Shown here in pieces: positions 24,505-49,916 of a DNA stretch of 53,336 nt. The stretch is from an archaeon. GTDB lineage: Archaea; Nanobdellota; Nanobdellia; Pacearchaeales; GW2011-AR1. How positions within the stretch are numbered: the stretch's first letter is position 1; every line of letters begins with the position of its first letter. The position numbers and the translations under genes were made by a program. The stretch lies in contig JBDRMT010000026.1 in assembly GCA_043811855.1 (NCBI GenBank), positions 1-53,336 of the forward strand, in the 5' to 3' direction. The notes under the pieces were generated by a model. That model worked only from the letters and a program-made list of their open reading frames with translations. It was not told the DNA's origin and did no database searches.

Positions 24505-24768
24505 ATGAAATCAAAAAAACTATCAAAACAAGAGATTCAAGAGCAAATAAAAGAGATTTTTTCAAAAAAACCTAATCAAAAAGAAATTAAAAAAGCTAAA
24601 AAACTAGCAATGTCAAAAAACATAAAATTAGGTTCTTTAAAGAAAATGTTTTGTAAAAAATGTTTCACTTTCTTTACACATAATAATTCTCAAATAAAAA
24701 TTAAAAAACCTTTTAAGATAATTAAATGTAAAGAATGCGGTTATGTTAGTAAGTATAAATTATCTTAA
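24505..24768 (+). CDS. rnp4: RNase P protein component 4 (Rpp21/Rnp4)
   Basis: The N-terminus is basic. The zinc ribbon is FCKKCFTFF...IKCKECGY. Confidence 0.75.
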   Translation: MKSKKLSKQEIQEQIKEIFSKKPNQKEIKKAKKLAMSKNIKLGSLKKMFCKKCFTFFTHNNSQIKIKKPFKIIKCKECGYVSKYKLS

Positions 24769-27606: not shown

Positions 27607-28620
27607 TTAAATACTACTATTTCCATATCTTTCTAAAACTTCTTTAGGATTAGTTGTAGCAGTTCCCATCTTCTCAACAACCAACCCTGCAATCATGTTT
27701 CCAAATCTTGCTGAATTATAAATATTCATTCCACATGCAAATCCTAATGAAACTCCTGCAGTTAAACTATCTCCTGCACCTGTATGATCTGAAACTTCTC
27801 TAGCATAAGTTTCTAACATTTTTGAATTTCCATTATCATAAATAAAAACTCCTTCTCTATCACAAGTTATTATAACATATTTTGGGTTCATTTTTTCCTG
27901 AATTTCTTTCCCAATTCTAAGTAAATCTTTTATTTCAGGAATTCCTAAACCTAACATTCCTCCTGCTTCTTTTCTGTTTGGACAAATAATAGTACAATTT
28001 TTAAAATTCTCAAAATTACCTGGTTTTAAATCAGCAATAACAGGAACATTAAATTGATTAGCTAAACTAATTATCTTTTTACTTAAACTCTCTCCATTAG
28101 AATTACTAACAAAAAATCCTTTATTATAATCAGATAAAACAATTGCATTGTAGTTTTTTATTTCCATTCTTAATATCTCTAAAAGTCTTTCTTGTAAGTT
28201 ATTAGAAATTTCAATAGGTTTGCCTTCTTCTTCATCTAATCTAAAACTATACTCTCCTTCATCATCATAAAATCTATTTTTTACAATAGTTTTTATTTCT
28301 TGGCTAAAAATAATTTTAGGATTTATCCTTTTTTCTTTTAATGTTCTTTCAATTTCCCTACCTTCAAAATCTTCTCCAACAATTCCATAAAAATCACAAT
28401 CTGAAAAAGGAGCTATATTGCTTGCAACATTTGCTCCTTGTCCTGGAATATTTTTTGAATTTTTTTTATCAGTCATACTAACCCTTAATAAAGGAACTCT
28501 TTTTTTATCAGGGTTTAATCTTTCTCTCTTACAATTGATATCTCTATCTAGCACAGCATCACCTATAACTGCAATTTTTAAACCTTTCATCTTCATAATA
28601 ATGTCTTTTAGTTCATCCAT
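27607..28620 (-). CDS. PfkB-family sugar kinase, RfaE/HldE domain I-like
   Basis: Motifs KIAVIGDAVLDR, the pfkB signature DHTGAGDSLTAG, and an overall ribokinase-like length. Confidence 0.8.
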   Translation of the reverse strand: MDELKDIIMKMKGLKIAVIGDAVLDRDINCKRERLNPDKKRVPLLRVSMTDKKNSKNIPGQGANVASNIAPFSDCDFYGIVGEDFEGREIERTLKEKRINPKIIFSQEIKTIVKNRFYDDEGEYSFRLDEEEGKPIEISNNLQERLLEILRMEIKNYNAIVLSDYNKGFFVSNSNGESLSKKIISLANQFNVPVIADLKPGNFENFKNCTIICPNRKEAGGMLGLGIPEIKDLLRIGKEIQEKMNPKYVIITCDREGVFIYDNGNSKMLETYAREVSDHTGAGDSLTAGVSLGFACGMNIYNSARFGNMIAGLVVEKMGTATTNPKEVLERYGNSSI

Positions 28621-29265: not shown

Positions 29266-31689
29266 ATGAAAAATAAAATATATGATTGTACAGGAATTGG
29301 ATCAGCAATACTAGACATAGTCTTTGAAGTGCCTGATAGTATCTTAGACGAACTTAACTTAAATAAAGGAGAAATGCATTTAGTAGATAAAGAAAAAAGT
29401 AATGAAATCTTAGAAAAATTATCTTCTTATGAATCAAGAATAGTTCCAGGAGGGAGTGCATCAAACACTGTTGCAGGAATTAGCTTTTTAGGAGGCAAAT
29501 CAGGTTTTATTGGAAAAATAGGAAAGGATAAACATGGGGAAATATACAAAGAAGTAACTAAAAGATTTAATGTTGATAATGATTTATCAGATCATGAATC
29601 AGAATCAACAGCAATTGCAATAACTTTTATAACTCCAGATAAACAAAGAACCTTTGCAACTTATTTAGGAGCTTGTTTGCATCTAAATCAAGATAATATA
29701 AATAAAGAGAAAATAAAAAATAGTAAGATTATACATTTAGAAGGATATCAACTAGATATCCCAAACATAAAAGAAAATTTGTTAGATATTTTAAAATATG
29801 CTAAAAAAAACAAAACTCTTGTATCTCTTGATTTATCAGATTCTGCTTTAATTTTAAGGCATAAAGATTTCTTAGATAATTTATTAAAAAATTATGTTGA
29901 TATTGTTTTTGCAAATGATGATGAAGCAAAAACATTTACAAATAAAGAACCAGAACAAGCCTTAGATGAACTTTCAAATTATTGTAATACAGCAATTGTA
30001 AAACTAGGTGAAAAAGGAAGTTTAATTAAAAAAGATAATAAAATCTATAAAATACCTGCTCAAAAAGTAAAAGTTGAAAATACAAATGGTGCAGGAGATA
30101 TGTATGCTGCAGGAATATTATATGGAATTGCAAAAAATCAAGATTTAAAAAACGCAGGTAATTTAGCAAGCAATGCAGCAGCATTAGTTGTTTCAAATAA
30201 AGCCGCAAGACTTGAAGATGATCAAAAACAGATAGTAAACCTTTTAAAGGATAAATACAGTTCAGAAATACTGAAAATGGACGAAACAGAAAATTATAAG
30301 GTAAGAGACATTTCCTTAGCAGAATTTGGAAGAAAAGAAATAGAAATTGCAGAAAAAGAAATGCCTGGTTTAATGGCAATTAGAGAAAAATATGGCCCTA
30401 ATAAGCCTTTAAAAGGAGCAAGGATAACAGGAAGCTTGCATATGACAATCCAAACAGCAGTTTTAATAGGAACTTTAGTTGAATTAGGAGCAGATGTAAG
30501 ATGGGCTAGTTGTAATATTTTCTCTACTCAAGACCATGCTGCAGCTGCAATAGCAGAAACAGGAGTTCCTGTTTTTGCATGGAAAGGTGAAACACTAAAA
30601 GAATATTGGTGGTGCACTAAAAAAGCATTAGATTTTGGAGAGAGTTTAGGTCCAAATTTAATTGTAGATGATGGAGGAGATGCAACTTTAATGATTCACA
30701 AAGGAGTAGAAGTTGAAAAAAATCCTAAGTTATTAGAAAAAGATTATTCAGATGAAGGAGAAGATTTTAAAGAACTTATGCTAAGCTTAAAAGAAATTTA
30801 TCAAGAAGATAATCAAAGATGGACTAATATTGTTAAAGAAATGAAAGGAGTTTCAGAAGAAACTACCACAGGAGTTAATAGATTATACCAAATGTTAAAT
30901 GAAAACAAATTATTGTTTCCAGCAATTAATGTTAATGATTCTGTTACAAAATCTAAATTTGATAATTTATATGGATGTAGAGAAAGTTTAGCAGATGGTA
31001 TAAAAAGAGCAACAGATGTTATGATTGCAGGAAAAACAGTTGTTGTATGTGGTTATGGAGATGTAGGAAAAGGTTGTGCTCAAAGCATGAAAGGTTTTGG
31101 AGCAAGAGTTATTGTAACTGAAATTGATCCAATTTGTGCATTACAAGCAGCAATGGAAGGATATGAAGTCAAGACAATTGAAGATAGTTTAGATGAAGCA
31201 AATATTTATGTAACAACAACAGGTAATAGGGATATTATTAGGATTGAACATATGGAAAAAATGAAAGATCAAGCAATTGTTTGTAATATTGGACATTTTG
31301 ATAATGAAATACAAATGGATAAATTAGAAAAATATCCAGATATTAAAAAAATAAATATAAAATCTCAGGTTGATAAATACAAATTTCCAGATGGACATGA
31401 AATATTTATTTTAGCAGAAGGAAGATTAGTTAATCTAGGATGTGCAACAGGTCATCCAAGTTTTGTTATGAGTAATTCATTTGCAAATCAAACTCTTGCT
31501 CAAATTGATTTATGGACTAAAGATTATGAAGTTGGGGTTTACATGCTTTCAAAAGAATTAGATGAAGAAGTTGCAAGACTTCATTTAGATAAACTTGGAG
31601 TAAAACTTACAAAACTAACTCAAGAACAGGCAGACTATCTTGGAATAAAAAAAGAAAGTAATTTTAAACCAGACCATTATAGGTATTGA
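29266..31689 (+). CDS. ahcY: fusion protein: PfkB-family (adenosine/nucleoside-type) kinase plus S-adenosyl-L-homocysteine hydrolase
   Basis: The N-terminal roughly 330 aa are ribokinase-like ([20 protein letters not shown]). From about aa 343 the sequence is canonical SAHH ([33 protein letters not shown], the NAD site GYGDVGKG, and [13 protein letters not shown]). It is one uninterrupted frame. Confidence 0.85.
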
Positions 31690-35804: not shown

Positions 35805-36602
35805 TTAAGCTGCTTGAGCATGTTCTTTTAATCTTGCATGAATAGCATTAGTCAGTACATAAAGTTGTTCAGTTCTTCGTGAATCTAAATCAATTCTTGC
35901 ATCTTCAATTTTTCTTTGTGATGCTGGATGAGTATAATTAATTTTAAATCCAATAACTTTATATCCTTGAATAATAGCATCTGCAACAGGCACAAAAATA
36001 GATTCCCAATCATCTCCATATCTTCCATCATAAGTTAAAAAACAGTTTTCAAAAACTTTTCTAGTACCAATTCTAGGTCCACTCCAAAGATCAAGATTTT
36101 CTTCATAACCTAAATATTCATTTAACAATCTACTTACAGCTAGATTACCTGCGTTTTCTGCATATTGTTGTACTTTTGGATAAGAATTTAAAGGTCTCCT
36201 ATCTGGAATAACAAGATCAGCTCTTTCTTCAGCTATTGGTATAATTGTTTTCCATAATTCAGGAATAAAATTTGATTTTTCAGGTTCTGTCCATACAATA
36301 ACTTCATTACTAAAATCAAGACCCTCTCGAAATGCTTCTCTTCTTCCAACTCCCATTCCTGTCTTTTCTTGATCATAAATAGCTACTCCAAGAGCAGCAA
36401 ATTTATTTAATAATTTATAATGAGAACCTCCATCAACAACAACAATTCCATATCCTCTATCAGAAGCTCTTCTTATCATATTTAATGCTAACTCACTTCT
36501 AATTTTATCGTTAGCATTTCCTTCAGGATTAGGATACCAAGTAGTTGTAGCAATAGTAGTCTCTTCTGCAATTGCTCTTTCTAAATCACTAAATAATATC
36601 AT
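35805..36602 (-). CDS. hypothetical protein, possibly GT-A-like glycosyltransferase (compositionally atypical)
   Basis: IVVVDGGSHYKLL and VWTEPEK loosely resemble GT-A nucleotide-binding and acidic motifs. Composition is Lys-poor. The functional call is weak. Confidence 0.35.
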   Translation of the reverse strand: MILFSDLERAIAEETTIATTTWYPNPEGNANDKIRSELALNMIRRASDRGYGIVVVDGGSHYKLLNKFAALGVAIYDQEKTGMGVGRREAFREGLDFSNEVIVWTEPEKSNFIPELWKTIIPIAEERADLVIPDRRPLNSYPKVQQYAENAGNLAVSRLLNEYLGYEENLDLWSGPRIGTRKVFENCFLTYDGRYGDDWESIFVPVADAIIQGYKVIGFKINYTHPASQRKIEDARIDLDSRRTEQLYVLTNAIHARLKEHAQAA

Positions 36603-36651: not shown

Positions 36652-38874
36652 CTAGAAATTCATTACTTTGTTTTTAGATTTAATATACTCAAGTGCTTTT
36701 CTTCTTTCATTTTTTAGTTGTTCATCTGTCATAACATCATGTTCAAATGTAAAATCTCTGTCTATTTCTCCTTCTTTTAAACCTAAAGTCATATTGTAAA
36801 TAGAAAAATCCTCTGTTTTTAATTTAATTCCATACTTTTTAGGGTTAGTATAAATATCTGATCCTGGATAAGGAACAAAAGTAGATACATTAACAGCATG
36901 AGGATGAGTTTTTTCAACAAACTGAATAAGTCTATCTGCAAAACCTGGTTTTTCTCCAGGAAGTCCAATAATAAAAAATAAACGAACCTTTATCCCTGCA
37001 TCATGAGTCATTTTAATAATATTTTCTGCTTGTTCTAAACCTATATTTTTACCAACTTTATCTAAAACCTCTTGTGTTGGAGATTCTATACCATAAGCAT
37101 TTTCCTCACAACCAGCTTTTTTTAAATGATAAAGAATTTCAGGGTCTACATAATCAACCCTAGTTTCTATTCTAAATCTAATTCCAAGAGGAGCAATTTT
37201 TTCACAAATTTCTATTAATCTCTTTTTATTTACTGTAAATGTGTCATCCATTATCCTGAAATTTTTAATATCATGATATTTAATAATCTCTTTTATTTCT
37301 TCAACTACATTATCAGGACTTCTAAACCTAACTCTTTGATGCCACATTATATCACTTGCACAAAACGAACAATTATTTGGACATCCTCTTGAGGTGATAA
37401 TTGCTGCTGTTGGACCTGCACCAACAAAAAGAGCATTTTCTGAAAAACAATTCTCAAAAGGAAGAAGATGTCTTGCAGGAAAAGGCACAGAATCTAAATT
37501 TTCAATAGGCTCTCTTTGATAAAATCTTTTATTATTGTTCTTATCTTCATAATCTTTTAATAAATCAAGAAAAGCAAGTTCACCTTCTCCAATAACAACT
37601 TTATCAAAAATATTACTTATTTTGTTTGAATTTGCAGTAGCATGTATTCCTCCAATTACTATCCATGAATCAGGATTTTTCTTTTTTATAATTTCTGCAA
37701 TTTTCTCAGATAAATAATAATCAGGAGTAGCAGCATTAATACCATAAACATCTGAATCTCCAATAAGTTTTTCAATCTCATCAAATTTTTTATTTCTTAA
37801 GTCTGTTATCTTTACTAAATATCCATTTTTTTCTGCAACTGCAGCTAAATAAAGAATTCCAATAGGAAGATTTCTCATGTCATCTCCAAGATAAGGATTT
37901 GAAGGAATTATTAGTTCTACTTTTGGTTTTAAAGGCTTTTTATTAAGTTCCTCTAAATACCATTTAATTGTTTTTCTTAAACCTTCTTTAAAACTTATTT
38001 TAGCTTTAAATCCAAATTCTTGCTCTGCTTTTGAAGTATCTAAACATCTTCTAGGTTGACCATCTGGTTTAGTTGTATCCCAAACAATTTCTCCTTGAAA
38101 ATTTGTTAGTTCTGCAATAATATTAACTAGCTCTTTTATTGTTGTTTCTTGCCCTGAACCAATATTAATAGGTTCGCTTTTATTATATCTCTCTATAGCT
38201 AAAATAATTGCATTAACAGCATCTTCCACATAAAGAAATTCTCTTGAAGCACTTCCAGTACCCCAAATTTCAACTTTATCTTTATTTTCTACAAATTTTT
38301 TAATTAAAGCAGGAATAACATGTGAATTTTCAGGATGAAAATCATCTCTAGGACCATAAAGATTAACCATTAACAAATGAATTGCATTAAATCCATATTG
38401 TTGCCTATAACCTTGGCTTTGAACCATCATCATTTTTTTAGTTAATCCATAAGCAGCATTTGTTTCTTCAGGATAACCTTCCCATAAATTTTCTTCTTTA
38501 AATGGAACAGGAGTAAATTTAGGATATTCGCAAACAGTTCCCATTCCATAAAATTTTTCAACATTATTTAACCTTGCATATTTTTGAATAAAAGTATTCA
38601 TTAAAATATTATTATCATAAACACTTCCAGGATTTTTTTTCATATAACCAATACCCCCACCATCAACAGCTAAATGAATAACTATCTGAGGTTTTGAATC
38701 TTCAAACAATCTCTTTACATCTCCTTCTTTTGTTAAATCATATTCATTTCTTGAAAATGTAAAAACATCTGCTCCTAATCCCTTCAACTTTTCAACTAAA
38801 AAACCTCCTACAAAACCCATGCCTCCTGTAACTAATACTCTCTTCTCACTCCAAAATTCTTTATCCATTTTCAC
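36652..38874 (-). CDS. fusion protein: GDP-L-fucose synthase/ColC-like SDR plus cobalamin-binding (class B) radical SAM domain
   Basis: The N-terminal roughly 315 aa resemble Fcl (VLVTGGMGFVGGF, AAYGLTKKMM, HVIPALIKKF). The remainder is a B12-binding-type domain (IGILYLAAV...VIGGIHAT) followed by the radical SAM motif SRGCPNNCSFC. It is a single open frame of 740 codons. Confidence 0.8.
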   Translation of the reverse strand: MKMDKEFWSEKRVLVTGGMGFVGGFLVEKLKGLGADVFTFSRNEYDLTKEGDVKRLFEDSKPQIVIHLAVDGGGIGYMKKNPGSVYDNNILMNTFIQKYARLNNVEKFYGMGTVCEYPKFTPVPFKEENLWEGYPEETNAAYGLTKKMMMVQSQGYRQQYGFNAIHLLMVNLYGPRDDFHPENSHVIPALIKKFVENKDKVEIWGTGSASREFLYVEDAVNAIILAIERYNKSEPINIGSGQETTIKELVNIIAELTNFQGEIVWDTTKPDGQPRRCLDTSKAEQEFGFKAKISFKEGLRKTIKWYLEELNKKPLKPKVELIIPSNPYLGDDMRNLPIGILYLAAVAEKNGYLVKITDLRNKKFDEIEKLIGDSDVYGINAATPDYYLSEKIAEIIKKKNPDSWIVIGGIHATANSNKISNIFDKVVIGEGELAFLDLLKDYEDKNNNKRFYQREPIENLDSVPFPARHLLPFENCFSENALFVGAGPTAAIITSRGCPNNCSFCASDIMWHQRVRFRSPDNVVEEIKEIIKYHDIKNFRIMDDTFTVNKKRLIEICEKIAPLGIRFRIETRVDYVDPEILYHLKKAGCEENAYGIESPTQEVLDKVGKNIGLEQAENIIKMTHDAGIKVRLFFIIGLPGEKPGFADRLIQFVEKTHPHAVNVSTFVPYPGSDIYTNPKKYGIKLKTEDFSIYNMTLGLKEGEIDRDFTFEHDVMTDEQLKNERRKALEYIKSKNKVMNF

Positions 38875-38970: not shown

Positions 38971-39684
38971 ATGAAAACTAAGATTCATCATCATTATGCA
39001 GCAACAATTGTAAAACCTAATACAGGTTGTGATTTTTTCCTTGTAAAGTATGATGCTACTTATCCAATTGAATTTTTAAGAGGAAGAGCTAATCTTCTTG
39101 GAGGAAATGCTAGTACTGAAGATATATCTCCTCAAGCAACCTTAGAAAGAAACATAAGAGCAAAATTCTCAACAAAAGAATCAGGAAATGCCCCCCTTTT
39201 AGATCTTGTTGCACATCTAGGAAGTGTTCCAATTTGTGATACTCCAATTAGAAAAACCTCTTCAGGAGAGGGTAAAAAAGAAAGAATAAGAGAGGCTATA
39301 CTAACAGGCTTAAGACCTTATGAAGATTATATGTTAACAGTTCCTTGTTTAAATGAAGAAGGTTACAAACCTCCAATGATATTTAGTTGTTTTTTAACAA
39401 CCTTAGACCCTATAGATTTTAATTTAATAAGAGAATATCATAGAGAACATGGCACTCTATTAAATATAGGAGAATCTTGGATCTATAGATTAAATGATTT
39501 GACTGAAGAAAATCCTCTTACTGCTTGGGCAACAGGAATTGCAATAGGAGATTTTATGAAGGTTTCAAAGCCAATCCCCAACCCAGATCATGTATTAATT
39601 GAACATTTAGGACCTCCTAGAGAATTATATAGAGCTTATACAAAAGAATTTGATTATGATTTTCCAGAAGGAGGATTTAGATAA
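38971..39684 (+). CDS. hypothetical protein (possible degenerate Nudix-like fold; compositionally atypical)
   Basis: GGNASTEDISPQATLERNIRAKF keeps the G-x5-E-x7 spacing of a Nudix box but lacks the REUxEE core. This is a weak call. Confidence 0.3.
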   Translation: MKTKIHHHYAATIVKPNTGCDFFLVKYDATYPIEFLRGRANLLGGNASTEDISPQATLERNIRAKFSTKESGNAPLLDLVAHLGSVPICDTPIRKTSSGEGKKERIREAILTGLRPYEDYMLTVPCLNEEGYKPPMIFSCFLTTLDPIDFNLIREYHREHGTLLNIGESWIYRLNDLTEENPLTAWATGIAIGDFMKVSKPIPNPDHVLIEHLGPPRELYRAYTKEFDYDFPEGGFR

Positions 39685-39695: not shown

Positions 39696-40841
39696 TTATA
39701 TTCTTTCACTTAAAATTTCTTTTATTGATTTAATCATATAATCTATTTTATCATTATTCATATATTGATTATTTGGAAGATAAATTCCTTTGTTATCAAT
39801 TATATCTGCCATAGTAGTTTTATCTTGCTTATAAAATTTATTCTTAAAAACAGGTTGCTTTAGTAAATTACCTCCAACAACAGGTCTACATTCAACTCCT
39901 TTTAATGGAAGGTTTTCTAAAACAAAATCTCTTTCCTCTTTACTTTTAAGAATAACAGCAAAAGAAAAAGAAGATGTTTCATTTAAATTAACTTTTTGAG
40001 ATTCTAAATCTAAATCTTTAATTTTTTCTAAAAAATAATTATGATTTTCAATTCTTTTTCTTATAAAACTATCTAATTTATTTAACTGAACTATTCCTAT
40101 TGATGCGTTTAAATTAGTATTTCTAAAATTATATCCAAAAACATCAAAAGTAAAATTTTTATTCTTATCAGGATATTTACTATGTCTTGTTGTACCTCTT
40201 GTCCAACCATGAGATCTCATAGATTTTAATAATTCATAAAATTCAAAATCATCTGTAACAACCATTCCACCTTCAATTGTTGTAATATGATGTCCAAAAT
40301 AAAAACTAAAACTTGCCATTTTTCCAAAATTTCCTACTTTAATTCCATTAAATCTAGCACCAAGACTTTCACAACAATCTTCTATTAAAATCAATCTATT
40401 TTTATCACAAATTTCTTTTATTTCTTCAATCTTAGCACTCTGACCAAGAAGATGAACTAAAAAAACAGCTTTTGTTTTTTCACTAATCATTCTTTTTAAA
40501 GAATTCACATCAAGATTAAAACTTTCATCAACATCACAAAAAACAGGATTCATTCCATTCTGAAGTATCGGATATACTGTTGTTGGCCAAGTAACACTTG
40601 GAACAATAATCTCATCATCATTTAAAAATCCACATCTTTGTTTTAATAAACTTATCATCAATAAATTTGCACTACTACCACTATTTACCATAACTGCATA
40701 TTTAGAACCATTCCATTCTGCAAATCTTTTTTCAAAATCTTCAACAACTCTACCATGAGTATACTCTTTGCTGTTTAAACACTCATTAACAGCTCTGATT
40801 TCTTCTTCACCAATAGAATCTTCCATTAATTTTATTTTCAT
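39696..40841 (-). CDS. PLP/PMP-dependent sugar 3-dehydratase of the DegT/DnrJ/EryC1 family (ColD/E1-like)
   Basis: It has the family fold (NSGSSANLL, IEDCCESLGA). At the position of the usual Schiff-base Lys the sequence reads SFSFYFGHHITTIEGG. His replacing Lys is the hallmark of ColD and CDP-hexulose 3-dehydrase E1. Confidence 0.7.
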   Translation of the reverse strand: MKIKLMEDSIGEEEIRAVNECLNSKEYTHGRVVEDFEKRFAEWNGSKYAVMVNSGSSANLLMISLLKQRCGFLNDDEIIVPSVTWPTTVYPILQNGMNPVFCDVDESFNLDVNSLKRMISEKTKAVFLVHLLGQSAKIEEIKEICDKNRLILIEDCCESLGARFNGIKVGNFGKMASFSFYFGHHITTIEGGMVVTDDFEFYELLKSMRSHGWTRGTTRHSKYPDKNKNFTFDVFGYNFRNTNLNASIGIVQLNKLDSFIRKRIENHNYFLEKIKDLDLESQKVNLNETSSFSFAVILKSKEERDFVLENLPLKGVECRPVVGGNLLKQPVFKNKFYKQDKTTMADIIDNKGIYLPNNQYMNNDKIDYMIKSIKEILSERI

Positions 40842-40845
40842 GTTA

Positions 40846-41916
40846 TTAGTTTTTATTATTTCTACATTTCAAATAAAATTCATCTTCAGCTTCTTTTAGA
40901 TCTTGATAAACCATTAATCTAACTAGTTCATAAAACTTAATTTTAGGTTCCCACCCTAATTTTTCCCTTGCTTTTGTAGGATCTGCTAGTAAATTATCAA
41001 CTTCTGCAGGCCTAAAATATCTAGGATCTATTTCAACAATAACTTTTCCATTTTCATCTAAATATTTTTCATTAACTCCTTGTTCTCCATTTGACTTAAT
41101 ATTTAAACCCACAGATCTAGCTGCTTCTTCTAAAAACTCTCTAACAGAATGATTTTCACCTGTTCCAATAACATAATCATCTGGCTCTTGTTTTTGTAAC
41201 ATTAACCACATAGCTTCAACATAATCTTTAGCATGACCCCAATCTCTTTTAGCTTCTAAATTTCCTAAAAAAACCTTTTCTTGTAAACCTAACTTAATTT
41301 TAGCTAAGGCTCTTGTTATTTTTTTTGTAACAAAAGAACCTCCTCTTCTTTCAGATTCATGATTAAACAAAATTCCATTACAAGCAAATAAATTATAAGA
41401 TTCTCTATAATTTTTTGTTATATTATGTGCAAAAACCTTTGCACAAGCATAAGGACTTCTAGGATAAAAAGGAGTCTTTTCATTTTGAGGACTTTCCATT
41501 ACTTTTCCAAACATTTCAGAAGAACTTGCTTGATAATATTTTGCTTCAGGACAAAACTTTCTCATAGCATCAAGAACCCTCAATGTTCCTAATCCTGTAA
41601 CATCAGCAGTATTTTCAGGAATATCAAAACTAACTCTAACATGGCTTTGTGCACCAAGGTTATAAATCTCATCAAATTTATTTTTCCTTAGTATATCACT
41701 TATTGAACTTGAATCTGTTAGATCTCCAAAAGTCATTATTAATCTTACATCCTTATCATGAGGATCATTAAAAATATGATCTATTCTTCCAGTATTAAAT
41801 GAACTACTCCTTCTGATTATGCCATGAACTTCATAACCTTTTTCTAAGAGAAACTCTGCAAGATAACTTCCATCTTGTCCTGTTATTCCAGTTATAAGTG
41901 CTCTTTTTCTCTCCAT
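40846..41916 (-). CDS. gmd: GDP-mannose 4,6-dehydratase
   Basis: Motifs [60 protein letters not shown]. Confidence 0.95.
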
Positions 41917-41993: not shown

Positions 41994-43106
41994 TTACATA
42001 AAATTTGGATGATAAATTGGATCTCTTACAGAGGCTAATATTTCCCCTATATTCATATCTCCTAATATTTGGTTTGTTTTTATACCATATAAAAATTCAT
42101 TTATTTTCTCAAATCTACAATGTTTTTGACAATCTTTAAGATTAATTCTTTCATAAGCTTTTTTCCTTTGCTCTGATGCCCAAATCTCTTTAAAACTCTG
42201 CTTTGACAAGTCTCCATAACAAAACTCTTCTTTATTTTTTAAAACATAACAAGGATATACTTTTGCATTTGGAGAAACTACTGTATAAAAGTGATGCACA
42301 TTACATTCTTTATAGGTTTCGCAAGCTTTTTTTTCAGAAAGTAGTTCAAAACGGTTTGTTGTAGCAGAAACAAGAAAATTCTCATCACTTAACTGGACAC
42401 ATCTTTTTAATTCTTCCATTATAGAATCTAATTCTTCATCTTGGGGTTTTTGCATATTTCCCCAATTATAAAAAGGTCTGATTCTAATATTATCTACACT
42501 AAGTTCTTTTGCTAGCTTTGTTGCATTATAAACTCCCTTTATAGTATGTGGGCCAACTAAGTAGCAAATTCCTATAAGTATCTCACTTTTATTTTGTTTT
42601 TTTGCAAGAACTAATTTTCTAACATTATCAACTACTTCTTTAAACACTTCCTCACCCATTCCATGAGTTTTTTTATAAATATCTGGTCCATCTGCATCAA
42701 GACTAATTCTCATAAATGAACAACAATTAACTATCGCATCTATAAGATCATCAGACATACCATAACCATTAGTACTAATAGCACACTCAATATTATTATC
42801 ATTAATAAATCTCAATATTTCTGCTAAATTTGGATGACAAATAGGGTCTCCTCCCCCTCCAAGAACAATAGTTTTGATTCCAACCTCTTTGAATTGTAAG
42901 ATTATATTTTTAGCTAAATCAAGATTTAGGGTAGTATTATCCGCACCTATCCCAGTATCAAAACATAACGGACATTTATTATTACATTTATTTGTAAGAG
43001 TAAAATCAATTGCATGAGGAAAGGTGTTTCCTGTTTCTTTCCATTTTAGCAAACTATCTAAATGTTTCATAAGTTTATAACTGCTGTAAATAGTCTCTTT
43101 TTTCAT
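41994..43106 (-). CDS. radical SAM protein with C-terminal Cys-rich (SPASM/twitch-like) region
   Basis: The CX3CX2C motif is CNNKCPLC. C-terminal cysteines include CYVLKNKEEFCYG...CQKHC. Confidence 0.8.
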   Translation of the reverse strand: MKKETIYSSYKLMKHLDSLLKWKETGNTFPHAIDFTLTNKCNNKCPLCFDTGIGADNTTLNLDLAKNIILQFKEVGIKTIVLGGGGDPICHPNLAEILRFINDNNIECAISTNGYGMSDDLIDAIVNCCSFMRISLDADGPDIYKKTHGMGEEVFKEVVDNVRKLVLAKKQNKSEILIGICYLVGPHTIKGVYNATKLAKELSVDNIRIRPFYNWGNMQKPQDEELDSIMEELKRCVQLSDENFLVSATTNRFELLSEKKACETYKECNVHHFYTVVSPNAKVYPCYVLKNKEEFCYGDLSKQSFKEIWASEQRKKAYERINLKDCQKHCRFEKINEFLYGIKTNQILGDMNIGEILASVRDPIYHPNFM

Positions 43107-43109
43107 TTT

Positions 43110-44006
43110 TTATTCCTCAGTATTTTTAATACTGTAAAAAGTATTTTTAATATTTTCTATTATTTTTGGCAATTTTTCTTTAAAAACTTCTTGCGGACTC
43201 CATCCAAATAACTCTTTTGCTTGATGATTATTAAAAGCAAACCCATAATCTCCTCCTTCCATATTTTCTATTTCTATGTTTGGATCTAACATTCTTATGA
43301 ATTGTAAAATTGAAATTAAATTAGAATTACCTCCACCTGCATTAATCTTTTTACCATAATGATTAGAATCTAAAAATAATTGTATTAATCTTCCTAAATC
43401 ATCAACATGAAGAACATCTCTAACTTGTTTTCCTTTATTATTCACTCTTATTTTTTCTCCTTTTAAATAATTTTTAATTATACTTGTAATCCAATTTCCT
43501 TTAGAAGAATCAAAATCAGTATAACAAGTAGATAATCTTATTACAATACTCTTAGGCACACATTCTGAAATAAGTTCTCCAATCAACTTTGTTTTAGAAT
43601 ATGCAGTTTCAGGAGCAAAAGGTTGACTATCATCAATAAAACGTTTAAGAAAATAATAATCTTTTTTTTCAACAACATCTGATTCTTTTACACAATTACC
43701 AAAAACATCCTTTGTAGAAATATAAACAAGTTTTACATCTAAATCTTGAAGTGCATTAACTAGATTATGCATTCCTGCAACATTTACTTTATAACTTTGA
43801 TCATTTATTTTAAATGTTTTGTTAGCTTTATCAGCAATTGTAGCACAATTAACTACAGCATCAATCTTATTTTTTATAATAACCTCTTGATTAAGTGATA
43901 ATATATCTTGTTTTCTTCCCCACCCAATCACATTATTTTTTTTGCTTAAAAAAGAGTACAACCCTCTTCCTAAATAGCCTTCATGTCCTATTAAGAGTAT
44001 ATTCAT
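43110..44006 (-). CDS. NAD(P)-dependent sugar epimerase/reductase (SDR, RmlD-like)
   Basis: Motifs MNILLIGHEGYLGRGL and the YxxxK pair YSKTKLIGE. Confidence 0.75.
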   Translation of the reverse strand: MNILLIGHEGYLGRGLYSFLSKKNNVIGWGRKQDILSLNQEVIIKNKIDAVVNCATIADKANKTFKINDQSYKVNVAGMHNLVNALQDLDVKLVYISTKDVFGNCVKESDVVEKKDYYFLKRFIDDSQPFAPETAYSKTKLIGELISECVPKSIVIRLSTCYTDFDSSKGNWITSIIKNYLKGEKIRVNNKGKQVRDVLHVDDLGRLIQLFLDSNHYGKKINAGGGNSNLISILQFIRMLDPNIEIENMEGGDYGFAFNNHQAKELFGWSPQEVFKEKLPKIIENIKNTFYSIKNTEE

Positions 44007-44058
44007 TCTAAAAACTCCTTCTTTTAAATATAAACATAGAATCTCTATTTATAAAAAG

Positions 44059-44070
44059 TTTTTAAAGATT
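44059..44070 (-). promoter_or_regulatory. third copy of the AATCTTTAAAAA element, in a divergent spacer
   Basis: It lies within the exact 21-nt repeat at 44050-44070. It is 53-64 nt from the minus-strand ATG at 44006 and about 66 nt from the plus-strand ATG at 44136, so its assignment is ambiguous. Confidence 0.3.
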
Positions 44071-44135
44071 ATTACATATTACTGATATAAATCTACCCTA
44101 GTTAATTATTTAAACTAATATATTTCTATAATAAA

Positions 44136-45563
44136 ATGAAGACTATTCTGACTGAAAAAAGAGAAGAAAAAAGAAAACAAAGGGTAATGTTTGCAATTGC
44201 TCCATGGGATATGTGGGGAGGAGAAGATGACAGCGGATATCCTACAGGAATAGCTTATTTAGCAGCAGTTTTAGAAAGAGAAGGTTATGAAGTTTCTGTT
44301 CTTAATCTAACATATACAAGATATGAAGATGTAATAGAGGATGTTAAAAGAAAAATAAAAGAAATAAACCCTGATATTTTTGGAATAAATATTATGACTA
44401 ATAGTAGGAATTCAGCATTAAAATTACTAAATGTTGTCAAAGAAATAAATCCAAATATTCCTATTATTGCAGGAGGAGTTCATACTACAATTTTACCTGA
44501 ACAAGTTCTTAATAATTTTCCAGTTGATTTTTTAGTTTTAGGAGAAGGTGAAATAACCTTAACTGAATTAGTTTCAACCTTAAAAGAAAAAAAACCTCTT
44601 AAAGATTTTAAAAAAATAAAAGGAATAGCATTTAAATATAATGGAGAGATTTTAACTACAGAAAAAAGAGAGAGAATTAGAGATCTTGATTCTTTACCTA
44701 TTCCAAAACATGAGCTTTTTTCAGAAATAATAGAAAAAAGTGGAGAAGCATCAGTAATGACTTCAAGAGGATGCCCTTATGCTTGCTCATTTTGTCCAAG
44801 TTCTGTTCATTGGGGAAGATATATGATTCAGAGAAGTGTAGAAAACGTTTTTAAAGAAGTACAGTATCTTATTGAAAGATTCCCAAGTTTAAAATCTATT
44901 TTCTTTTTTGATGATGAATTTATTTGTAATAAAGAAAGAGTTATAAAATTGTGTAAAATGATGATTGATAATAATGTTAATATTGGTTGGACTTGTTTAG
45001 GAAGAGTTACTTCAATAGATGAGGAATTAGTAAGTTGGATGAAAAGAGCAGGTTGCAAAGAAATGATTTTTGGTGTTGAAAGTGGTTCTCAAAAGATTTT
45101 AGATGCCTTAGGTAAAAAAGTTAAAATTCATCAGATTGTTGAAGCCTTTAGAATTTGTAAGAAATATAAAATCCCAACAAGATGTTTAACAATTATTGGT
45201 TTACCAGGAGAAAATTCTCAAACAGTTAAAGAAACAATTAAGTTAGTTAAAAAAGTAAGAGATACTTCTGAACCTGCAATATTACTTGTTTTTCCAGGAA
45301 CAAGAATCTATGAAATAGCCAAAGAAAAAGGAGTTTTAGATGATGAATACTGGTTATCTGATAAATTAGTGCCTTTTTATACTGGAGAACATTCAAAAAT
45401 GCAACTATGGTGGTGGTCTTTTAAAGTAGGATTTTATAGTCGTTTATATGCTAAACCCTTTAGCCTTTTTGAATTTTTTAATCGTAAAATCCTTCAAAAA
45501 TTAGATAATATTCAGGGTTTTAAAAGAATTTTTAAAAGATATGTAACAAATAAGACTGATTAA
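44136..45563 (+). CDS. cobalamin-binding (class B) radical SAM protein
   Basis: The B12-domain pattern is GIAYLAAVLE...IIAGGVHTT...VLGEGE. The radical SAM motif is SRGCPYACSFC. Confidence 0.85.
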   Translation: MKTILTEKREEKRKQRVMFAIAPWDMWGGEDDSGYPTGIAYLAAVLEREGYEVSVLNLTYTRYEDVIEDVKRKIKEINPDIFGINIMTNSRNSALKLLNVVKEINPNIPIIAGGVHTTILPEQVLNNFPVDFLVLGEGEITLTELVSTLKEKKPLKDFKKIKGIAFKYNGEILTTEKRERIRDLDSLPIPKHELFSEIIEKSGEASVMTSRGCPYACSFCPSSVHWGRYMIQRSVENVFKEVQYLIERFPSLKSIFFFDDEFICNKERVIKLCKMMIDNNVNIGWTCLGRVTSIDEELVSWMKRAGCKEMIFGVESGSQKILDALGKKVKIHQIVEAFRICKKYKIPTRCLTIIGLPGENSQTVKETIKLVKKVRDTSEPAILLVFPGTRIYEIAKEKGVLDDEYWLSDKLVPFYTGEHSKMQLWWWSFKVGFYSRLYAKPFSLFEFFNRKILQKLDNIQGFKRIFKRYVTNKTD

Positions 45564-45564
45564 G

Positions 45565-47247
45565 ATGGTTATAAAGAATTCAAAAATAATAAGATATTTT
45601 AAGGATAAGAGAATTCTTATTGCAGGAGTAAATGTTGAAGATCAAGAAGCAAACAACATAGATTTACATTCATTATTTAAAACTGCATTCAAAAAAGTAA
45701 TAACCTTTGATTTAAGAAAACAATATTTTTTACATGGTAGCAAAACTTTAAATGAAAACTTTATAAATATTTTAAAAAAAGAAACTCCAGAGTATATACT
45801 TCTTATATTAGGTTATGATGAACTTGATTTAGAGTCTCTAAAAAAAATAAAAGAAATATGCCCAAATACCAAGGTTTTTATACAATATGGTGATGATCGA
45901 TGGAAATTTGATGACTGGGCAAGATACTACTCATTGTTCTCAGACTATGTATTAACTACAGAAAAAGAAAACTCTTATTATAAAGAAGATGGAATAAATG
46001 ATGTTTACCCCTGGTATGGAGTTGATATAAAACTTTTCAAACCTAATAATCTAAAAAAAATCTATGATACTTCTTTTATTGGATGCCCAATGTCAAATAG
46101 AGGGGATTATGTCAAATTCTTAACAGATAAAGTAAATATAAAATTATTTGGAGGAGGATGGGATGCATATCCAGAACTAAAAAAAGTTTATAAAGGCTAT
46201 TTAGATTCAGAAGAATATTCTAATACTATCAACAAGACTAAAATAAATATAAGTTTTTCAAAATCTTATTATCCTGGAAGAGGAGATACTCATTTTAAAT
46301 CAAGACTTTTTGAAGTTTTTGCTACTAACTCTTTTTTACTTGTAGAATATTATCCTCAATTAAAACTTTATTATAATAAGTACTATGATAAGATATCATT
46401 CAACTCAAAAAATGAACTTCTTAAAAAAATAAAATATTATCTTGAGAATGAAGAAGAAATGAAAAAAATGACAGAATATTTTTATAAAGAAACAATTAAA
46501 AATTATTCTTGGGAAAAACAATTAGAAAATCTACTACATATTCTATATAAAGATAGGGATAGAAAACCAAAAAAAGAACTTCCAAAATTAAAAAACAAGA
46601 TTATAGAATTAAATGAAGAAGACCTTAAAAAACCATCAGACTATTTAAAACAAAAAACAAAAAGTTTTGATTATATATGTTTTAAAAAAGATGAAACTTT
46701 ACCTTCAAAATATAAAACTTATTTTCAAATATATTCTTTAGAAAAATCTAAAAAACAAATAAGTTGCTGTGATTATCATCTTTATTCAAAAAAGCTAGGA
46801 GATTATATGCTTTTTACTGCAAAAAGAGCCTTTGAAACCATTGAAGATAAAAATAATTTTAATAAATTGTTAAATATAAATCAGATAGCAGTAACAAAGA
46901 ACTTCTTTTTTAATAATCTTAAAAAATTCAAAAAAATATTTAATAATGATACTATAGATTTTATTAATAATGATAATACTGTTTTTATTTCCATACCCTT
47001 AGTGCAAATTAAAAACCTAAGGATCAAGAGTGATAATGAGATTAATAAAGCTTTTAGAATGAAATTTTTTGATAAACTTTATCTATTAATTCAATCTAAA
47101 AAAATAATATCAAATAGATATATTTATGATTTTTTTATAGAATCTCTGTTTAGAGGAGATTTTTTGTTACTAAAGTCATTTTTTGGATATATCTTTAACA
47201 AAGAAAATTTAATAAGGCTTGTAGCAGTTAAAAGAAGTGTAAACTAA
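45565..47247 (+). CDS. CgeB-like (DUF3880-type) glycosyltransferase with extra C-terminal domain
   Basis: HFKSRLFEVFATNSFLLVEY and LKKIKYYLENEEEMKKM resemble the CgeB/Glyco_trans_1_2 C-terminal region. The last roughly 230 aa are unassigned. Confidence 0.5.
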   Translation: MVIKNSKIIRYFKDKRILIAGVNVEDQEANNIDLHSLFKTAFKKVITFDLRKQYFLHGSKTLNENFINILKKETPEYILLILGYDELDLESLKKIKEICPNTKVFIQYGDDRWKFDDWARYYSLFSDYVLTTEKENSYYKEDGINDVYPWYGVDIKLFKPNNLKKIYDTSFIGCPMSNRGDYVKFLTDKVNIKLFGGGWDAYPELKKVYKGYLDSEEYSNTINKTKINISFSKSYYPGRGDTHFKSRLFEVFATNSFLLVEYYPQLKLYYNKYYDKISFNSKNELLKKIKYYLENEEEMKKMTEYFYKETIKNYSWEKQLENLLHILYKDRDRKPKKELPKLKNKIIELNEEDLKKPSDYLKQKTKSFDYICFKKDETLPSKYKTYFQIYSLEKSKKQISCCDYHLYSKKLGDYMLFTAKRAFETIEDKNNFNKLLNINQIAVTKNFFFNNLKKFKKIFNNDTIDFINNDNTVFISIPLVQIKNLRIKSDNEINKAFRMKFFDKLYLLIQSKKIISNRYIYDFFIESLFRGDFLLLKSFFGYIFNKENLIRLVAVKRSVN

Positions 47248-47256
47248 TCTAATTTA

Positions 47257-47430
47257 AAATGAAATCAAAAAACATATTAATAAAACCTGTGAAAATCAAG
47301 AATATTATTAACTTATACAATTACAAGGAGAGTATACTGGAATCTATAAGCAAGAATACACTAGCACCCTAAGTTTGTAGGATATTAATACATAATAAAA
47401 TTTAAACCAAAAATAAATGAAATCAAAAAA
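47257..47430 (+). repeat. spacer element bounded by an exact 16-nt direct repeat that contains the start of the flippase gene
   Basis: aaatgaaatcaaaaaa occurs at 47257-47272 and 47415-47430. The internal block 47298-47390 is homologous to 51378-51470. Confidence 0.8.
47259..47372 (+). CDS. candidate 37-aa peptide ORF inside the spacer element
   Basis: The product is MKSKNILIKPVKIKNIINLYNYKESILESISKNTLAP*. It shares in-frame KNIxNLYNxK and SKxxLA blocks with the ORF at 51351-51473, including synonymous differences. Confidence 0.35.
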   Translation: MKSKNILIKPVKIKNIINLYNYKESILESISKNTLAP

Positions 47431-48994
47431 AGAAGGACCTGGTGAAATTGATAATTATCTTAAAAGGCTAGTTAAAACTTCTATTTTTGTTTTTTTAAGC
47501 TTAATACTATCTAAAATATTTACCTATCTTTACAGAATTATAATTGCAAGATCTTTTGGAGCAGAAGTATATGGATTATATTCTCTAGCTATGATGGTTA
47601 CTGGAATTTTAATAGCTTTTTCAGCATTAGGATTAGGAGCTGGGATTTTAAGATATTTTTCTTATTATAGAGGGAAAAAGGAAACAAGTAAAATAAAATA
47701 TATTTTAAGATCTTCTTCAAAAATATTAATCTTATCAAGTATATTTTTTATGCTATTTCAGTTTTTTTCAGCAGAGTTTATTGCTGTAAATCTATTTCAT
47801 GATGAAAGTCTTATATTATACTTAAAATGGTTTAGTATTACAATCCCCTTACTAACAATAGGATATATTTTTATATACGCTTTAAAGTCCTTTGAAAAAA
47901 CAAATTGGTCTTCTTTTTCAGAAAATATCTCTCAAAACTTAGTTCAATTTATTTTTATTGTGTTATTAATCTTTTTAGGTTTAAGAGAAATTTCAATAAT
48001 GTTTTCACATATTGCAGGAGCTGCATTTTTATTTATAATAGGGTTTATAATTTGTAAATATAAATTACCTGAAATTTTTAAGAGTTATAAATTAAATAAA
48101 AAAGAAAAAAGCAAGGTAAGAAAAGAATTATTTAACTATTCTTGGCCATTAATGCTTTTTACAATAATTTCCTCGTTTTTCTATTGGATAGATACATTTG
48201 CAATAGGTTATTTTCAAAATACACTTGAAGTTGGACTTTATAATGCAGCAGTCCCAATAGTTTCTCTTCTTTATATTGCTCCAACAATATTTGTCCAACT
48301 GCTTTTTCCACTAATTACAAAAGAATATGCAAAAAAGAATTATAATACAATAAAAGAGCTTAGTAAACAAGTAACAAAATGGATATTAATCTTAAATTTA
48401 CCAATGTTAGCAATTATGCTCTTATTTCCTGGAACAATTCTAAATATTCTTTTTGGAGCAGAATTTGTAACTACAGCAACAGAAAACGCTTTAAGGTTAT
48501 TAGCAATAGGAGTATTTTTTCCTGCAACACTCTTTATATCAAACAACCTAATATCTATGGCAGGAAAATCAAAAACAATCCTTTTAAATATGGTAGTTGT
48601 AGCCATAGTTAACATAGTATTGAATATTCTTTTAGTTCCAAAATATGGAATAGAAGGTGCAGCATTTTCAACAATGATTTCATCTGTTTTACTTGGATTA
48701 ATGTTCTTACTTCAAGGAAAATATTATTTATCAATAGTCCCATTTAGAAGGAAAATGTTAAGAATAGTTCTTGCAATAATTATTCCATCTATTATAATCT
48801 TTTACTTAAGAACCATAATTGAAATAAATATTTTAAATGTAATCACTGTTGCAATATTCTTTTTATTAATCTATATTCTATCCATAATAGTAACAGGATG
48901 TTTAGATAGAAATGATATTATGATTATAGATTCTTTTTTAAAAGGACATAAAAATTTAAAAGGTCTTTTTCATAGTGTTGAACATAAAGTATAA
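47417..48994 (+). CDS. wzx: oligosaccharide/polysaccharide flippase (Wzx, MOP superfamily)
   Basis: 525 aa with about 14 TM segments and the typical polysaccharide-biosynthesis-protein layout. Confidence 0.8.
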   Translation: MKSKKEGPGEIDNYLKRLVKTSIFVFLSLILSKIFTYLYRIIIARSFGAEVYGLYSLAMMVTGILIAFSALGLGAGILRYFSYYRGKKETSKIKYILRSSSKILILSSIFFMLFQFFSAEFIAVNLFHDESLILYLKWFSITIPLLTIGYIFIYALKSFEKTNWSSFSENISQNLVQFIFIVLLIFLGLREISIMFSHIAGAAFLFIIGFIICKYKLPEIFKSYKLNKKEKSKVRKELFNYSWPLMLFTIISSFFYWIDTFAIGYFQNTLEVGLYNAAVPIVSLLYIAPTIFVQLLFPLITKEYAKKNYNTIKELSKQVTKWILILNLPMLAIMLLFPGTILNILFGAEFVTTATENALRLLAIGVFFPATLFISNNLISMAGKSKTILLNMVVVAIVNIVLNILLVPKYGIEGAAFSTMISSVLLGLMFLLQGKYYLSIVPFRRKMLRIVLAIIIPSIIIFYLRTIIEINILNVITVAIFFLLIYILSIIVTGCLDRNDIMIIDSFLKGHKNLKGLFHSVEHKV

Positions 48995-48996
48995 AA

Positions 48997-49857
48997 ATGG
49001 TTTCAATAAAAAGTAAGATTTATAGTATGCTTCCAAAGAACATGCAAAAAAAAACAAAAAGTTTTTATTATGATTCTATTTTATATCCTATTAACAAGCT
49101 TAAAAATAAAATAAAATATGGTGAATCTGATTTTTTTGATACAATCTGTATAGAAACAACAACTCATTGCAATTTAAGATGTGATTTTTGCCCAAATAAG
49201 ATATATGAAAGAGGAACATTAAAAAATAAAAAACTTATGGATGAAGAACTCTTTAAAAAAATAATAAATCAACTTGCAGAAGTAAAATTTAAAGGAACAA
49301 TCATGCCTCATTTTTATGGAGAACCTCTAACAGATGAAAGACTTACTGATTGGGTTTCTTATATAAAAGAAAAACTTCCTAAATCAAGAATTGAAATAAA
49401 TTCAAACGGTATTTTATTAACTCCAGAAATTTATAAACAACTAATAAATGCAGGAGCAGATAGCTTTACAATTTCTCAATACACTCCTGAAATGACAGAG
49501 GGAATGAAACAAGTATTTGAATATCTTAAAAAAAGACCTAAAGAAAATAAAATAAATTATAGAGTTTTTAAGGAAGATACTGCTATTTGTAATAGGGGAG
49601 GAGAGATTGAAGTTAAAAAACCTTGGGAAAAACCCTTGTGTACTTATCCTATTAATTTTATAAATATTGATTATAATGGAAATATGGTTATATGTTGTAA
49701 TGATTATCATAGTTCTATAAAATTAGGAAATCTAAATCAAGAAAGATTAATAGATATCTGGTTTAAACCTTATTATAAAAATCTTAGAAAAAGCTTAAGA
49801 AAAGGAGTTTATGATCTTTTAATTTGCAAAAGGTGTGTAGGTGAAATCACCTCTTAA
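48997..49857 (+). CDS. radical SAM protein with C-terminal Cys cluster (SPASM/twitch-like)
   Basis: The CX3CX2C motif is CNLRCDFC. C-terminal cysteines include CNRGG, CTYP, VICCNDYH, CKRC. Confidence 0.8.
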   Translation: MVSIKSKIYSMLPKNMQKKTKSFYYDSILYPINKLKNKIKYGESDFFDTICIETTTHCNLRCDFCPNKIYERGTLKNKKLMDEELFKKIINQLAEVKFKGTIMPHFYGEPLTDERLTDWVSYIKEKLPKSRIEINSNGILLTPEIYKQLINAGADSFTISQYTPEMTEGMKQVFEYLKKRPKENKINYRVFKEDTAICNRGGEIEVKKPWEKPLCTYPINFINIDYNGNMVICCNDYHSSIKLGNLNQERLIDIWFKPYYKNLRKSLRKGVYDLLICKRCVGEITS

Positions 49858-49883
49858 TATCAATTCTCTCAACCCAATAGAAT

Positions 49884-49895
49884 AATCTTTAAAAA
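49884..49895 (+). promoter_or_regulatory. BRE/TATA-like promoter element AATCTTTAAAAA
   Basis: It is centred about 25 nt upstream of the ATG at 49917, which would give a leaderless or near-leaderless mRNA. Confidence 0.45.
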
Positions 49896-49916
49896 GGATT
49901 TTTATATTGTATAAAA

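Follow-up and report, generated by a model that had tools for sequence, protein, structure and literature searches.

A predicted fusion of a GDP-fucose synthase/ColC-type reductase with a B12-domain radical SAM enzyme in a groundwater archaeon, and a candidate GDP-deoxyhexose module around it

The pathway to guanosine diphosphate (GDP)-L-colitose of Escherichia coli O55 and Yersinia pseudotuberculosis, with its GDP-mannose 4,6-dehydratase (GMD), ColD and ColC, together with the GDP-fucose synthases (Fcl/GFS/FX), offers the first known system with which the locus described here can be compared. The locus lies in a 53,336-nucleotide (nt) stretch of DNA, here called the window (contig JBDRMT010000026.1 of assembly GCA_043811855.1, forward strand), from a groundwater archaeon of the Pacearchaeales with a genome of 1.0 Mb (74% complete). 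Like the colitose pathway, the window has a GMD, a ColD with the His188 residue and an Fcl/ColC-type short-chain dehydrogenase/reductase (SDR). Unlike it, the window SDR, encoded at 36652–38874, is covalently joined to a radical S-adenosylmethionine (SAM) enzyme (rSAM), which the known colitose and fucose pathways do not have.

The second term of comparison is given by the class B rSAM methyltransferases (GenK/GenD1 and Fom3, as well as TokK, CysS, TsrM and MgmA), which share with the window rSAM a B12-type Rossmann domain followed by a CxxxCxxC core; the window enzyme, however, reaches no curated subfamily model, and for it a sugar or nucleotide-linked substrate is plausible. GenK and GenD1 belong to gentamicin and Fom3 to cytidylyl-hydroxyethylphosphonate, and GenK, Fom3, OxsB and HpnJ are known examples of class B rSAM enzymes whose substrates are sugars or nucleotide-linked compounds. 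To our knowledge, and after a literature search, no class B rSAM methyltransferase is fused to an SDR or stands within a GDP-deoxyhexose operon. Apramycin biosynthesis offers a third comparison: AprD4, a radical SAM 1,2-diol dehydratase, works with the NADPH-dependent reductase AprD3, and the pairing of a radical sugar enzyme with a ketoreductase is shared. AprD4 and AprD3 are nevertheless separate proteins acting on an aminoglycoside (paromamine for AprD4) and not on a nucleotide sugar, and the window module has a 3-dehydratase of the pyridoxal phosphate (PLP) type. Finally, the NCBIfam models that score highest on the window rSAM half are those of HpnJ, an enzyme of hopanoid cyclitol-ether formation, and of BchE, both far under their cut-offs. 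HpnJ presumably remodels a sugar ring; genes of hopanoid or bacteriochlorophyll pathways were not found near the fusion gene.

The fusion gene and its parts are located in the window as follows.

36652–38874, minus strand: whole fusion open reading frame (ORF), stop codon included, with 740 codons when counted from GTG and 738 when counted from the ATG at codon 3
37939–38874, minus strand: N-terminal extended-SDR domain of the GDP-L-fucose synthase/ColC type, residues 1–312
37921–37956, minus strand: junction, 12 residues LEELNKKPLKPK, residues 307–318
37561–37866, minus strand: B12-binding-type Rossmann domain, residues 337–438, PF02310
36946–37401, minus strand: radical SAM core, residues 492–643, PF04055, with the cluster motif at 37360–37383

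The frame is uninterrupted across its 740 codons, as seen in both the ORF listing and the translation, and the database copy of the protein is 738 amino acids (aa) long, starting with the ATG two codons past the GTG. Pfam recognised Epimerase at residues 13–239 (E 2e-54), the B12-binding domain at residues 337–438 (56 bits, cut-off 32.1) and Radical_SAM at residues 492–643 (91 bits, cut-off 29.5). A first-pass annotation of this DNA had described a single 740-codon polypeptide with a linker near nt 37920; one unbroken ORF carrying the Pfam domains of both enzymes was indeed found, the junction maps to nt ~37921–37956, and the strings quoted there (VLVTGGMGFVGGF, YGLTKKMM, HVIPALIKKF, LNKKPLKPKVELIIPSNPY and SRGCPNNCSFC) are all present in the translation. 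Taken together with the tests of the junction described below, we judge it probable, though well short of certain, that the ORF is a genuine lineage-specific fusion yielding a bifunctional enzyme that acts in a GDP-deoxyhexose pathway.

In the alignment the two halves are joined end to end, with no extra linker between them. The 12 junction residues LEELNKKPLKPK sit between the conserved KWY end of the SDR and the conserved start of the rSAM, VELIIPSNPYLGDD. In a balanced alignment (A4), stand-alone SDRs stop 5–12 residues past the conserved WY, and stand-alone rSAM orthologs begin 2–14 residues ahead of the (V/L)ELII-P-x-PYLGD strand. In-frame ATG, GTG and TTG codons are absent from the junction; the earliest one is that of M333, past the invariant PYLGD.

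In the SDR half the dinucleotide-binding GxxGxxG motif is VTGGMGFVGG at residues 15–24, aligned with that of all homologs. The catalytic residues T113, Y142 and K146 occupy the columns of S107, Y136 and K140 of the E. coli enzyme, and the epimerisation pair C115 (in GTVCEYP) and H185 (in NSHVIPAL) those of C109 and H179. The best NCBIfam model was Fcl (NF047922), with 263.9 bits under a curated cut-off of 500 bits; its profile was covered from 2 to 306 of 308 positions, and the SDR match reaches residue 311. Among solved GDP-fucose synthases the best matches were 7ll6 (3e-56) and the E. coli structures 1bsv, 1bws and 1e6u (~1e-50). A structure model (m634c8ea7e4da), built on alignment A4 with a mean predicted local distance difference test score (pLDDT) of 84, gave for the SDR fold template-modelling (TM) scores of 0.84–0.86 against the GDP-fucose synthases 1gfs, 1e7s and 4bl5. 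The assignment of the N-terminal half to the Fcl-type SDRs is therefore well borne out, with triad and Cys/His pair complete and the fold in agreement; loss of the triad, which the first-pass annotation had named as grounds for refutation, was not found, the S/T-Y-K residues being aligned and intact.

A maximum-likelihood tree of 68 SDR domains placed the window SDR as sister to that of a ColD::SDR fusion protein, P0018 (support 99/94), within a group of 13 (support 93/64), ten of which are fused or adjacent to a dehydratase with His in place of the PLP-binding lysine. No GMD-only member is found in this group; GMD-fused and GMD-adjacent SDRs fill the other large group, and the dehydratase label clusters on the tree better than in all of 500 shuffles. 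On the strength of gene context and of this weakly supported clade, a ColC-like role of the window SDR would be favoured, without being decided.

As for the C-terminal half (residues ~319–740), it aligns with stand-alone homologs from residue ~319. The cluster motif CPNNCSFC corresponds to C498-x3-C502-x2-C505, whose cysteines are invariant in 17 orthologs; indeed, every column invariant among these 17 is retained, including the GGIHAT and GEGE motifs of the B12-type domain. The predicted model of this half has a pLDDT of 80–97. Foldseek returned AprD4 as the closest solved structure (TM 0.70), followed by CysS, MgmA (TM 0.68), TsrM and TokK, and then OxsB; by sequence, too, AprD4 came first among the solved structures (5e-17). 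Pfam, NCBIfam and structure matches thus agree with the earlier description of this half as a B12-binding-domain radical SAM enzyme. Its sequence is that of a compact B12-like domain followed by an rSAM core, class-B-type, which may bind cobalamin and may transfer methyl groups. Ten proteins with a B12-binding domain are encoded in the source genome, and all of them appear to be rSAM enzymes; a PduO-type cobalamin adenosyltransferase was not found there (at 74% completeness).

The covalent SDR::B12-rSAM architecture appears to be new, although both domains come from known superfamilies. A word-indexed search covering 5.8 billion clusters gave the window protein as the only one with all three domains, the other strong matches being stand-alone B12-rSAMs of 420–440 aa (45–68% identity) or SDRs fused otherwise. 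An exhaustive phmmer search of 1.84 billion representatives returned no protein matching both halves, the best score (430 bits) belonging to a stand-alone rSAM. A match to both halves even at ~30% identity should have entered that list; the library holds one representative per 50% cluster, hence a fusion standing behind a single-domain representative would be missed. No in-frame fusion emerged from a metagenome scan with a junction-spanning fragment, nor was the fusion present in 60 related genomes, where the best separate SDR had 56% and the best rSAM 39% identity. The literature searched likewise yielded no report of an SDR combined with a B12-rSAM and, in keeping with the earlier remark that no characterised example was known, the architecture appears to be undescribed.

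Several candidates retrieved by these searches were set aside. Three metagenome matches (L130–L132) come from ordinary Fcl genes of 314 aa with a guanylyltransferase gene behind them, tblastn having run past the stop. A match spanning SDR and rSAM with one TAG (G032:C169) consists of an unrelated SDR gene and a separate B12-rSAM gene 51 nt further on, and a 718-aa frame (G033:C37) is an SDR::ColD-type fusion with no rSAM. Four giant proteins from phmmer (P0128, P0159, P0168 and P0208; 1879–2331 aa) are tandem rSAM or rSAM-glycosyltransferase-methyltransferase proteins without an SDR: three of them have 4–5 tandem radical SAM domains, with one SPASM-type domain in two of these, and the domain order of one giant protein is B12-rSAM, methyltransferase, family 2 glycosyltransferase (GT2), methyltransferase, GT2, B12-rSAM.

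Upstream of the fusion gene, on the same strand, the window encodes the two preceding enzymes of a colitose-type pathway; the genes next to the fusion are listed here.

40846–41916, minus strand: GMD, TIGR01472 above the equivalog cut-off
39696–40841, minus strand: ColD-type 3-dehydratase of the PLP/pyridoxamine phosphate type, 2gms match, His in the ColD His188 column
38971–39684, plus strand: 237-aa ORF with no family match, on the strand opposite to the fusion gene
35805–36602, minus strand: gene of 265 aa immediately downstream of the fusion gene, weakly similar to AglJ/dolichyl-phosphate hexose transferase

The GMD scored 544 bits against TIGR01472 (equivalog cut-off 415 bits). The DegT-family protein matched E. 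coli ColD (2gms) at 7e-84, with the RfbH dehydratase as its best NCBIfam match, and the first His of its FGHH motif lies in the column of ColD His188 (SHH), a column fixed by the H188N and H188K mutant entries. With this ColD match and a bona fide GMD, GDP-mannose is, from the sequence, the best-supported entry point. A heptose scaffold was rejected for this window: no GmhA was found in the genome (74% complete), and the HldE-like genes are split and under cut-off, namely a heptose-7-phosphate-kinase-like PfkB protein at 27607–28620 on the minus strand (218 bits, cut-off 345) and a heptose-1-phosphate-adenylyltransferase-like protein at 24765–25253 on the minus strand (155 bits, cut-off 181.5). 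Moreover, the HldE route yields ADP-heptose and not a GDP-sugar, so it would not feed GDP-sugar enzymes.

In the closest relatives (L022, L023 and L024), one cluster holds a GMD (79–81% identity), the ColD::SDR fusion P0018 (69% and 75% identical to the separate window ColD and SDR, respectively) and a P0003-type rSAM (68%). In the window, by contrast, ColD and SDR are split, and the fusion partner of the SDR is the rSAM. ColD, SDR and rSAM being fused in different pairs in sister lineages, they would therefore belong to one pathway (Rosetta-stone evidence). The 237-aa ORF at 38971–39684, for which no Pfam, NCBIfam or PHROG match was obtained, occupies the place of the linker of the ColD::SDR fusion when compared with P0018, and looks like an insertion that split such a fusion. 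The 265-aa gene downstream matched TIGR04182 at E 1.8e-5, far under cut-off.

The association between SDR and rSAM was then found outside the window. Eighty loci from species-representative genomes, fetched by rSAM-ortholog alignment, were searched with the neighbouring proteins of the window; 15 carry full-length rSAM orthologs (identity at least 38%, except L042 with 35%) and 65 distant paralogs (identity at most 35%). Within 4 kb, 7 of the 15 ortholog loci and none of the 65 paralog loci had an SDR with 56% or more identity to the window SDR half (one-sided Fisher ~2e-6, computed by hand, with loci that are not all independent, about six lineages contributing), and a GMD at 55–68% identity was present in six of the 15. 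The association was seen in Pacearchaeota, Micrarchaeota, Methanoperedens and Planctomycetia, as well as at a further Pacearchaeota locus (L025) and on metagenome contigs L001 and L023; close rSAM orthologs occur also in Omnitrophota and Ratteibacteria. The gene orders, in which DegT denotes the dehydratase family of ColD, are the following.

Pacearchaeota L032/L025: rSAM divergent from GMD-DegT-SDR
Planctomycetia L039 and L043: rSAM-GMD-DegT-SDR on a single strand
Metagenome contig L001: rSAM convergent with SDR-DegT
Methanoperedens metagenome-assembled genome L041/L189: GMD-DegT-SDR-rSAM on a single strand

In L041, where the SDR lies at 9066–10004 and the rSAM at 10004–11266, the stop codon of the SDR and the start codon of the rSAM overlap in GTGA, and the Methanoperedens order is, from its sequence, the unfused precursor expected for the window gene. 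L041/L189 lies in a glycan cluster that also encodes a flippase, three further B12-rSAMs, glycosyltransferases and methyltransferases. All DegT genes adjoining an SDR ortholog have His at the PLP-lysine column (GHH, AHN or AHL); DegT genes away from SDR orthologs have Lys there. The first-pass annotation had tied the rSAM to a GDP-6-deoxyhexose pathway on the basis of the fusion, and gene neighbourhoods in several phyla now lend that idea strong and independent support. The common denominator would be a GDP-6-deoxyhexose, mostly 3-deoxygenated.

Two observations on these loci may be added. The His-type DegT proteins of the modules (L039 12320–13567, L041 7807–9063, L043 10036–11265, L029 5728–7068 and L032 7606–8814) fall into at least two subfamilies unlike ColD, in which the ColD motif SHHIATMEGG is replaced by SFYIAHNIQAGEMG in one and by STY(I/V)AHLI(S/V)TGVGG in the other; they are 27–33% identical to the window ColD and their chemistry may differ. 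In the Methanoperedens glycan cluster, a BrnT/CopG-type toxin-antitoxin pair (L189 5113–5657) lies between an SDR and a GT2 gene.

The proposed route would begin with GMD, which would turn GDP-mannose into GDP-4-keto-6-deoxymannose, from which the ColD-type 3-dehydratase would make GDP-4-keto-3,6-dideoxymannose. The SDR half would then carry out C5 epimerisation and NADPH-dependent C4 reduction to a GDP-colitose-type sugar. In the rSAM half, SAM would be cleaved at the [4Fe-4S] cluster and the resulting 5'-deoxyadenosyl radical would take a hydrogen from the sugar, which would be modified in turn; the enzyme would act on the same GDP-sugar just before or just after the reductase step. A nucleotide sugar is the most likely rSAM substrate, as we infer from the fusion and its context. 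Our leading guess for the modification, at somewhat less than an even chance, is C-methylation at C3 or C6, both of them unactivated carbons, because of the base rate among rSAM enzymes with a B12 domain and of the many methyltransferases in the cluster. The fusion itself probably arose when adjacent, translationally coupled SDR and rSAM genes lost their stop/start boundary, and it would hold the two active sites near each other; physical substrate channelling, as suggested in the first-pass annotation, is a hypothesis.

More broadly, a conserved module of GMD, His-type 3-dehydratase, SDR and B12-rSAM, seen in DPANN archaea, Methanoperedens and Planctomycetia, may make a GDP-deoxyhexose carrying an undescribed radical-installed modification (for example a C-methyl branch or a chain extension), so that the window fusion would act as a Rosetta stone through which a large family of orphan class B rSAM enzymes could be assigned a nucleotide sugar as substrate. 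This larger proposal is put forward tentatively, as an attractive possibility that we would not yet call the expected outcome. The conserved module, on which the literature searched yielded nothing, is a more important novelty than the fusion itself.

A number of points weigh against these proposals. SDRs of 55–61% identity are also found in plain GMD-SDR pairs of the GDP-fucose-like kind, and one rSAM ortholog stands with a GMD and an SDR and without a dehydratase. In some lineages, therefore, the sugar may be of the fucose type. Together with the Methanoperedens SDR, which falls in the Fcl-like group of the tree, these two observations keep the case for a ColC-like role from being decisive. 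Four to five of the 15 ortholog loci have no deoxysugar genes in their available flanks. The best structural neighbour of the rSAM half, AprD4, is a dehydratase and not a methylase, with the same domain layout, and the curated rSAM subfamilies are all under cut-off: HpnJ with 154 of 578 bits, BchE with 132 of 481, PhpK with 112 of 600, MJ_0865 with 87 of 360, AprD4 with 71 of 500, and ApyD also far under. The inter-domain geometry of the structure model is unreliable (predicted TM score 0.62). As to the gene itself, the fusion is a singleton on one contig, any one-base deletion at 37943–37956 gives two plausible overlapping genes, and the C-terminal tails of the relatives are too variable to choose between the junction frames.

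Among the alternatives, the one that survives best accepts the fusion and holds that the rSAM half is an AprD4/HpnJ-like dehydratase, rearrangement or epimerisation enzyme, whose product is reduced by the attached SDR. AprD4 leads both the sequence matches (5e-17) and the structural matches (TM 0.70), HpnJ and BchE, which take the top NCBIfam scores, are not methylases, and a radical enzyme attached to a 4-ketoreductase fits the AprD4/AprD3 logic known from apramycin. Against this, the AprD4 family model is matched by the rSAM core only, at the low score given above, and the cobalamin-dependent methylases are nearly as close in structure (MgmA with TM 0.68, then CysS, TsrM and TokK). A dedicated 3-dehydratase is already present in the module, colitose has no remaining vicinal diol for a diol dehydratase, and most characterised rSAM enzymes with a B12 domain are methyltransferases. 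We hold this alternative to be rather unlikely.

It could also be supposed that the fusion is real and the rSAM acts instead on a lipid-linked or polymerised glycan, a lipid or a protein, its co-localisation with deoxysugar genes reflecting no more than a shared glycan cluster. Such clusters hold several other B12-rSAM paralogs, class I methyltransferases and glycosyltransferases, a protein of 1879 aa joins B12-rSAM domains to GT2 and methyltransferase domains, and some ortholog loci are without nearby deoxysugar genes. The association is, however, specific to the ortholog group and to the trio of GMD, dehydratase and SDR (the 7 of 15 versus 0 of 65 loci reported above), and SDR and rSAM are translationally coupled in L041 and covalently fused in the window. 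By the Rosetta-stone principle, enzymes that become fused usually catalyse successive steps in one pathway. We therefore hold a substrate other than the GDP-sugar to be improbable.

Equally improbable, in our judgement, is an artefact by which overlapping genes for a ~314-aa SDR and a ~436-aa rSAM were merged through one spurious inserted base. When the 195 single-base indels possible from the WY to the VELII codons were introduced in silico, 17 brought back an SDR stop together with a canonical rSAM start; 14 of these are deletions at gene positions 918–931 (window 37943–37956), the other three being insertions that create a new start codon. After such a deletion the SDR ends in ...KWYLEELIKSL*, with a 9-residue tail, and the rSAM starts as MVFRGT.KKPLKPKVELII, with a 14-residue head, from an out-of-frame ATG within AAA-TGG (K-W). 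Tail and head lengths of this order are typical of stand-alone homologs, and the fused frame is known from one contig only. The rescue by one base is nevertheless weak evidence, because DNA of 28% GC can be expected to contain, by chance, an out-of-frame ATG at a K/E-W codon pair with out-of-frame stops close by. The zone 37943–37956 contains homopolymers of at most 2 nt, with an A5 run lying outside it, and the 53-kb contig bears no signs of indel errors: coding sequence makes up 86% of it, the median ORF length is 286 aa, the genes of its operons are spaced in an orderly way and no gene looks frameshifted. The artefact would imply an overlap of 35 nt, versus the 4 nt seen in L041, and the clade of the window SDR is a frequent real fusion partner elsewhere (with ColD, GMD, glycosyltransferases and others). 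A chimeric join at a repeat was rejected as unlikely, the junction DNA occurring once in the source genome; the closest relatives of the SDR and rSAM halves come from one and the same metagenome sample.

Rather than by an assembly error, the frame is thus better explained by a genuine fusion. B12-domain radical SAM enzymes are among the largest enzyme groups without known substrates, and archaea and bacteria with tiny genomes have strikingly many of them in surface-glycan clusters, about ten in this 1-Mb genome. The fusion and the gene pair conserved across phyla lead to a testable substrate hypothesis, namely GDP-colitose/fucose-type sugars or their 4-keto precursors. If true, a radical step would be added to nucleotide-sugar biosynthesis, and a new class of modified deoxysugars might be found on the surfaces of uncultured microbes; this lead on an orphan enzyme family is tempered by the singleton fusion and by the several candidate chemistries.

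The fusion gene and its pathway neighbours share their glycan cluster with further genes of the window, at 41994–53240. These include two more B12-rSAM genes (44136–45563 and 49917–51347), rSAM-SPASM genes at 41994–43106 and 48997–49857, a Wzx/MurJ-type flippase at 47417–48994 and a Glyco_trans_1_2 protein at 45565–47247. The pair formed here by rSAM475 and GT560 parallels the rSAM476 and GT567 pair of relatives L022 and L023.

Two further features of the window were observed on the other side of the fusion gene. At 29266–31689, on the plus strand, an 807-aa protein joins a PfkB-family kinase (residues 59–315) to an S-adenosylhomocysteine (SAH) hydrolase (residues 343–806); it may be an adenosine-kinase::SAH-hydrolase clearing SAH, in a genome that is rich in SAM-using enzymes. 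At 20534–21271 and 21210–21620, on the minus strand, two same-strand ORFs with no Pfam match overlap by 62 nt, and may be either an overlapping pair or one split gene.

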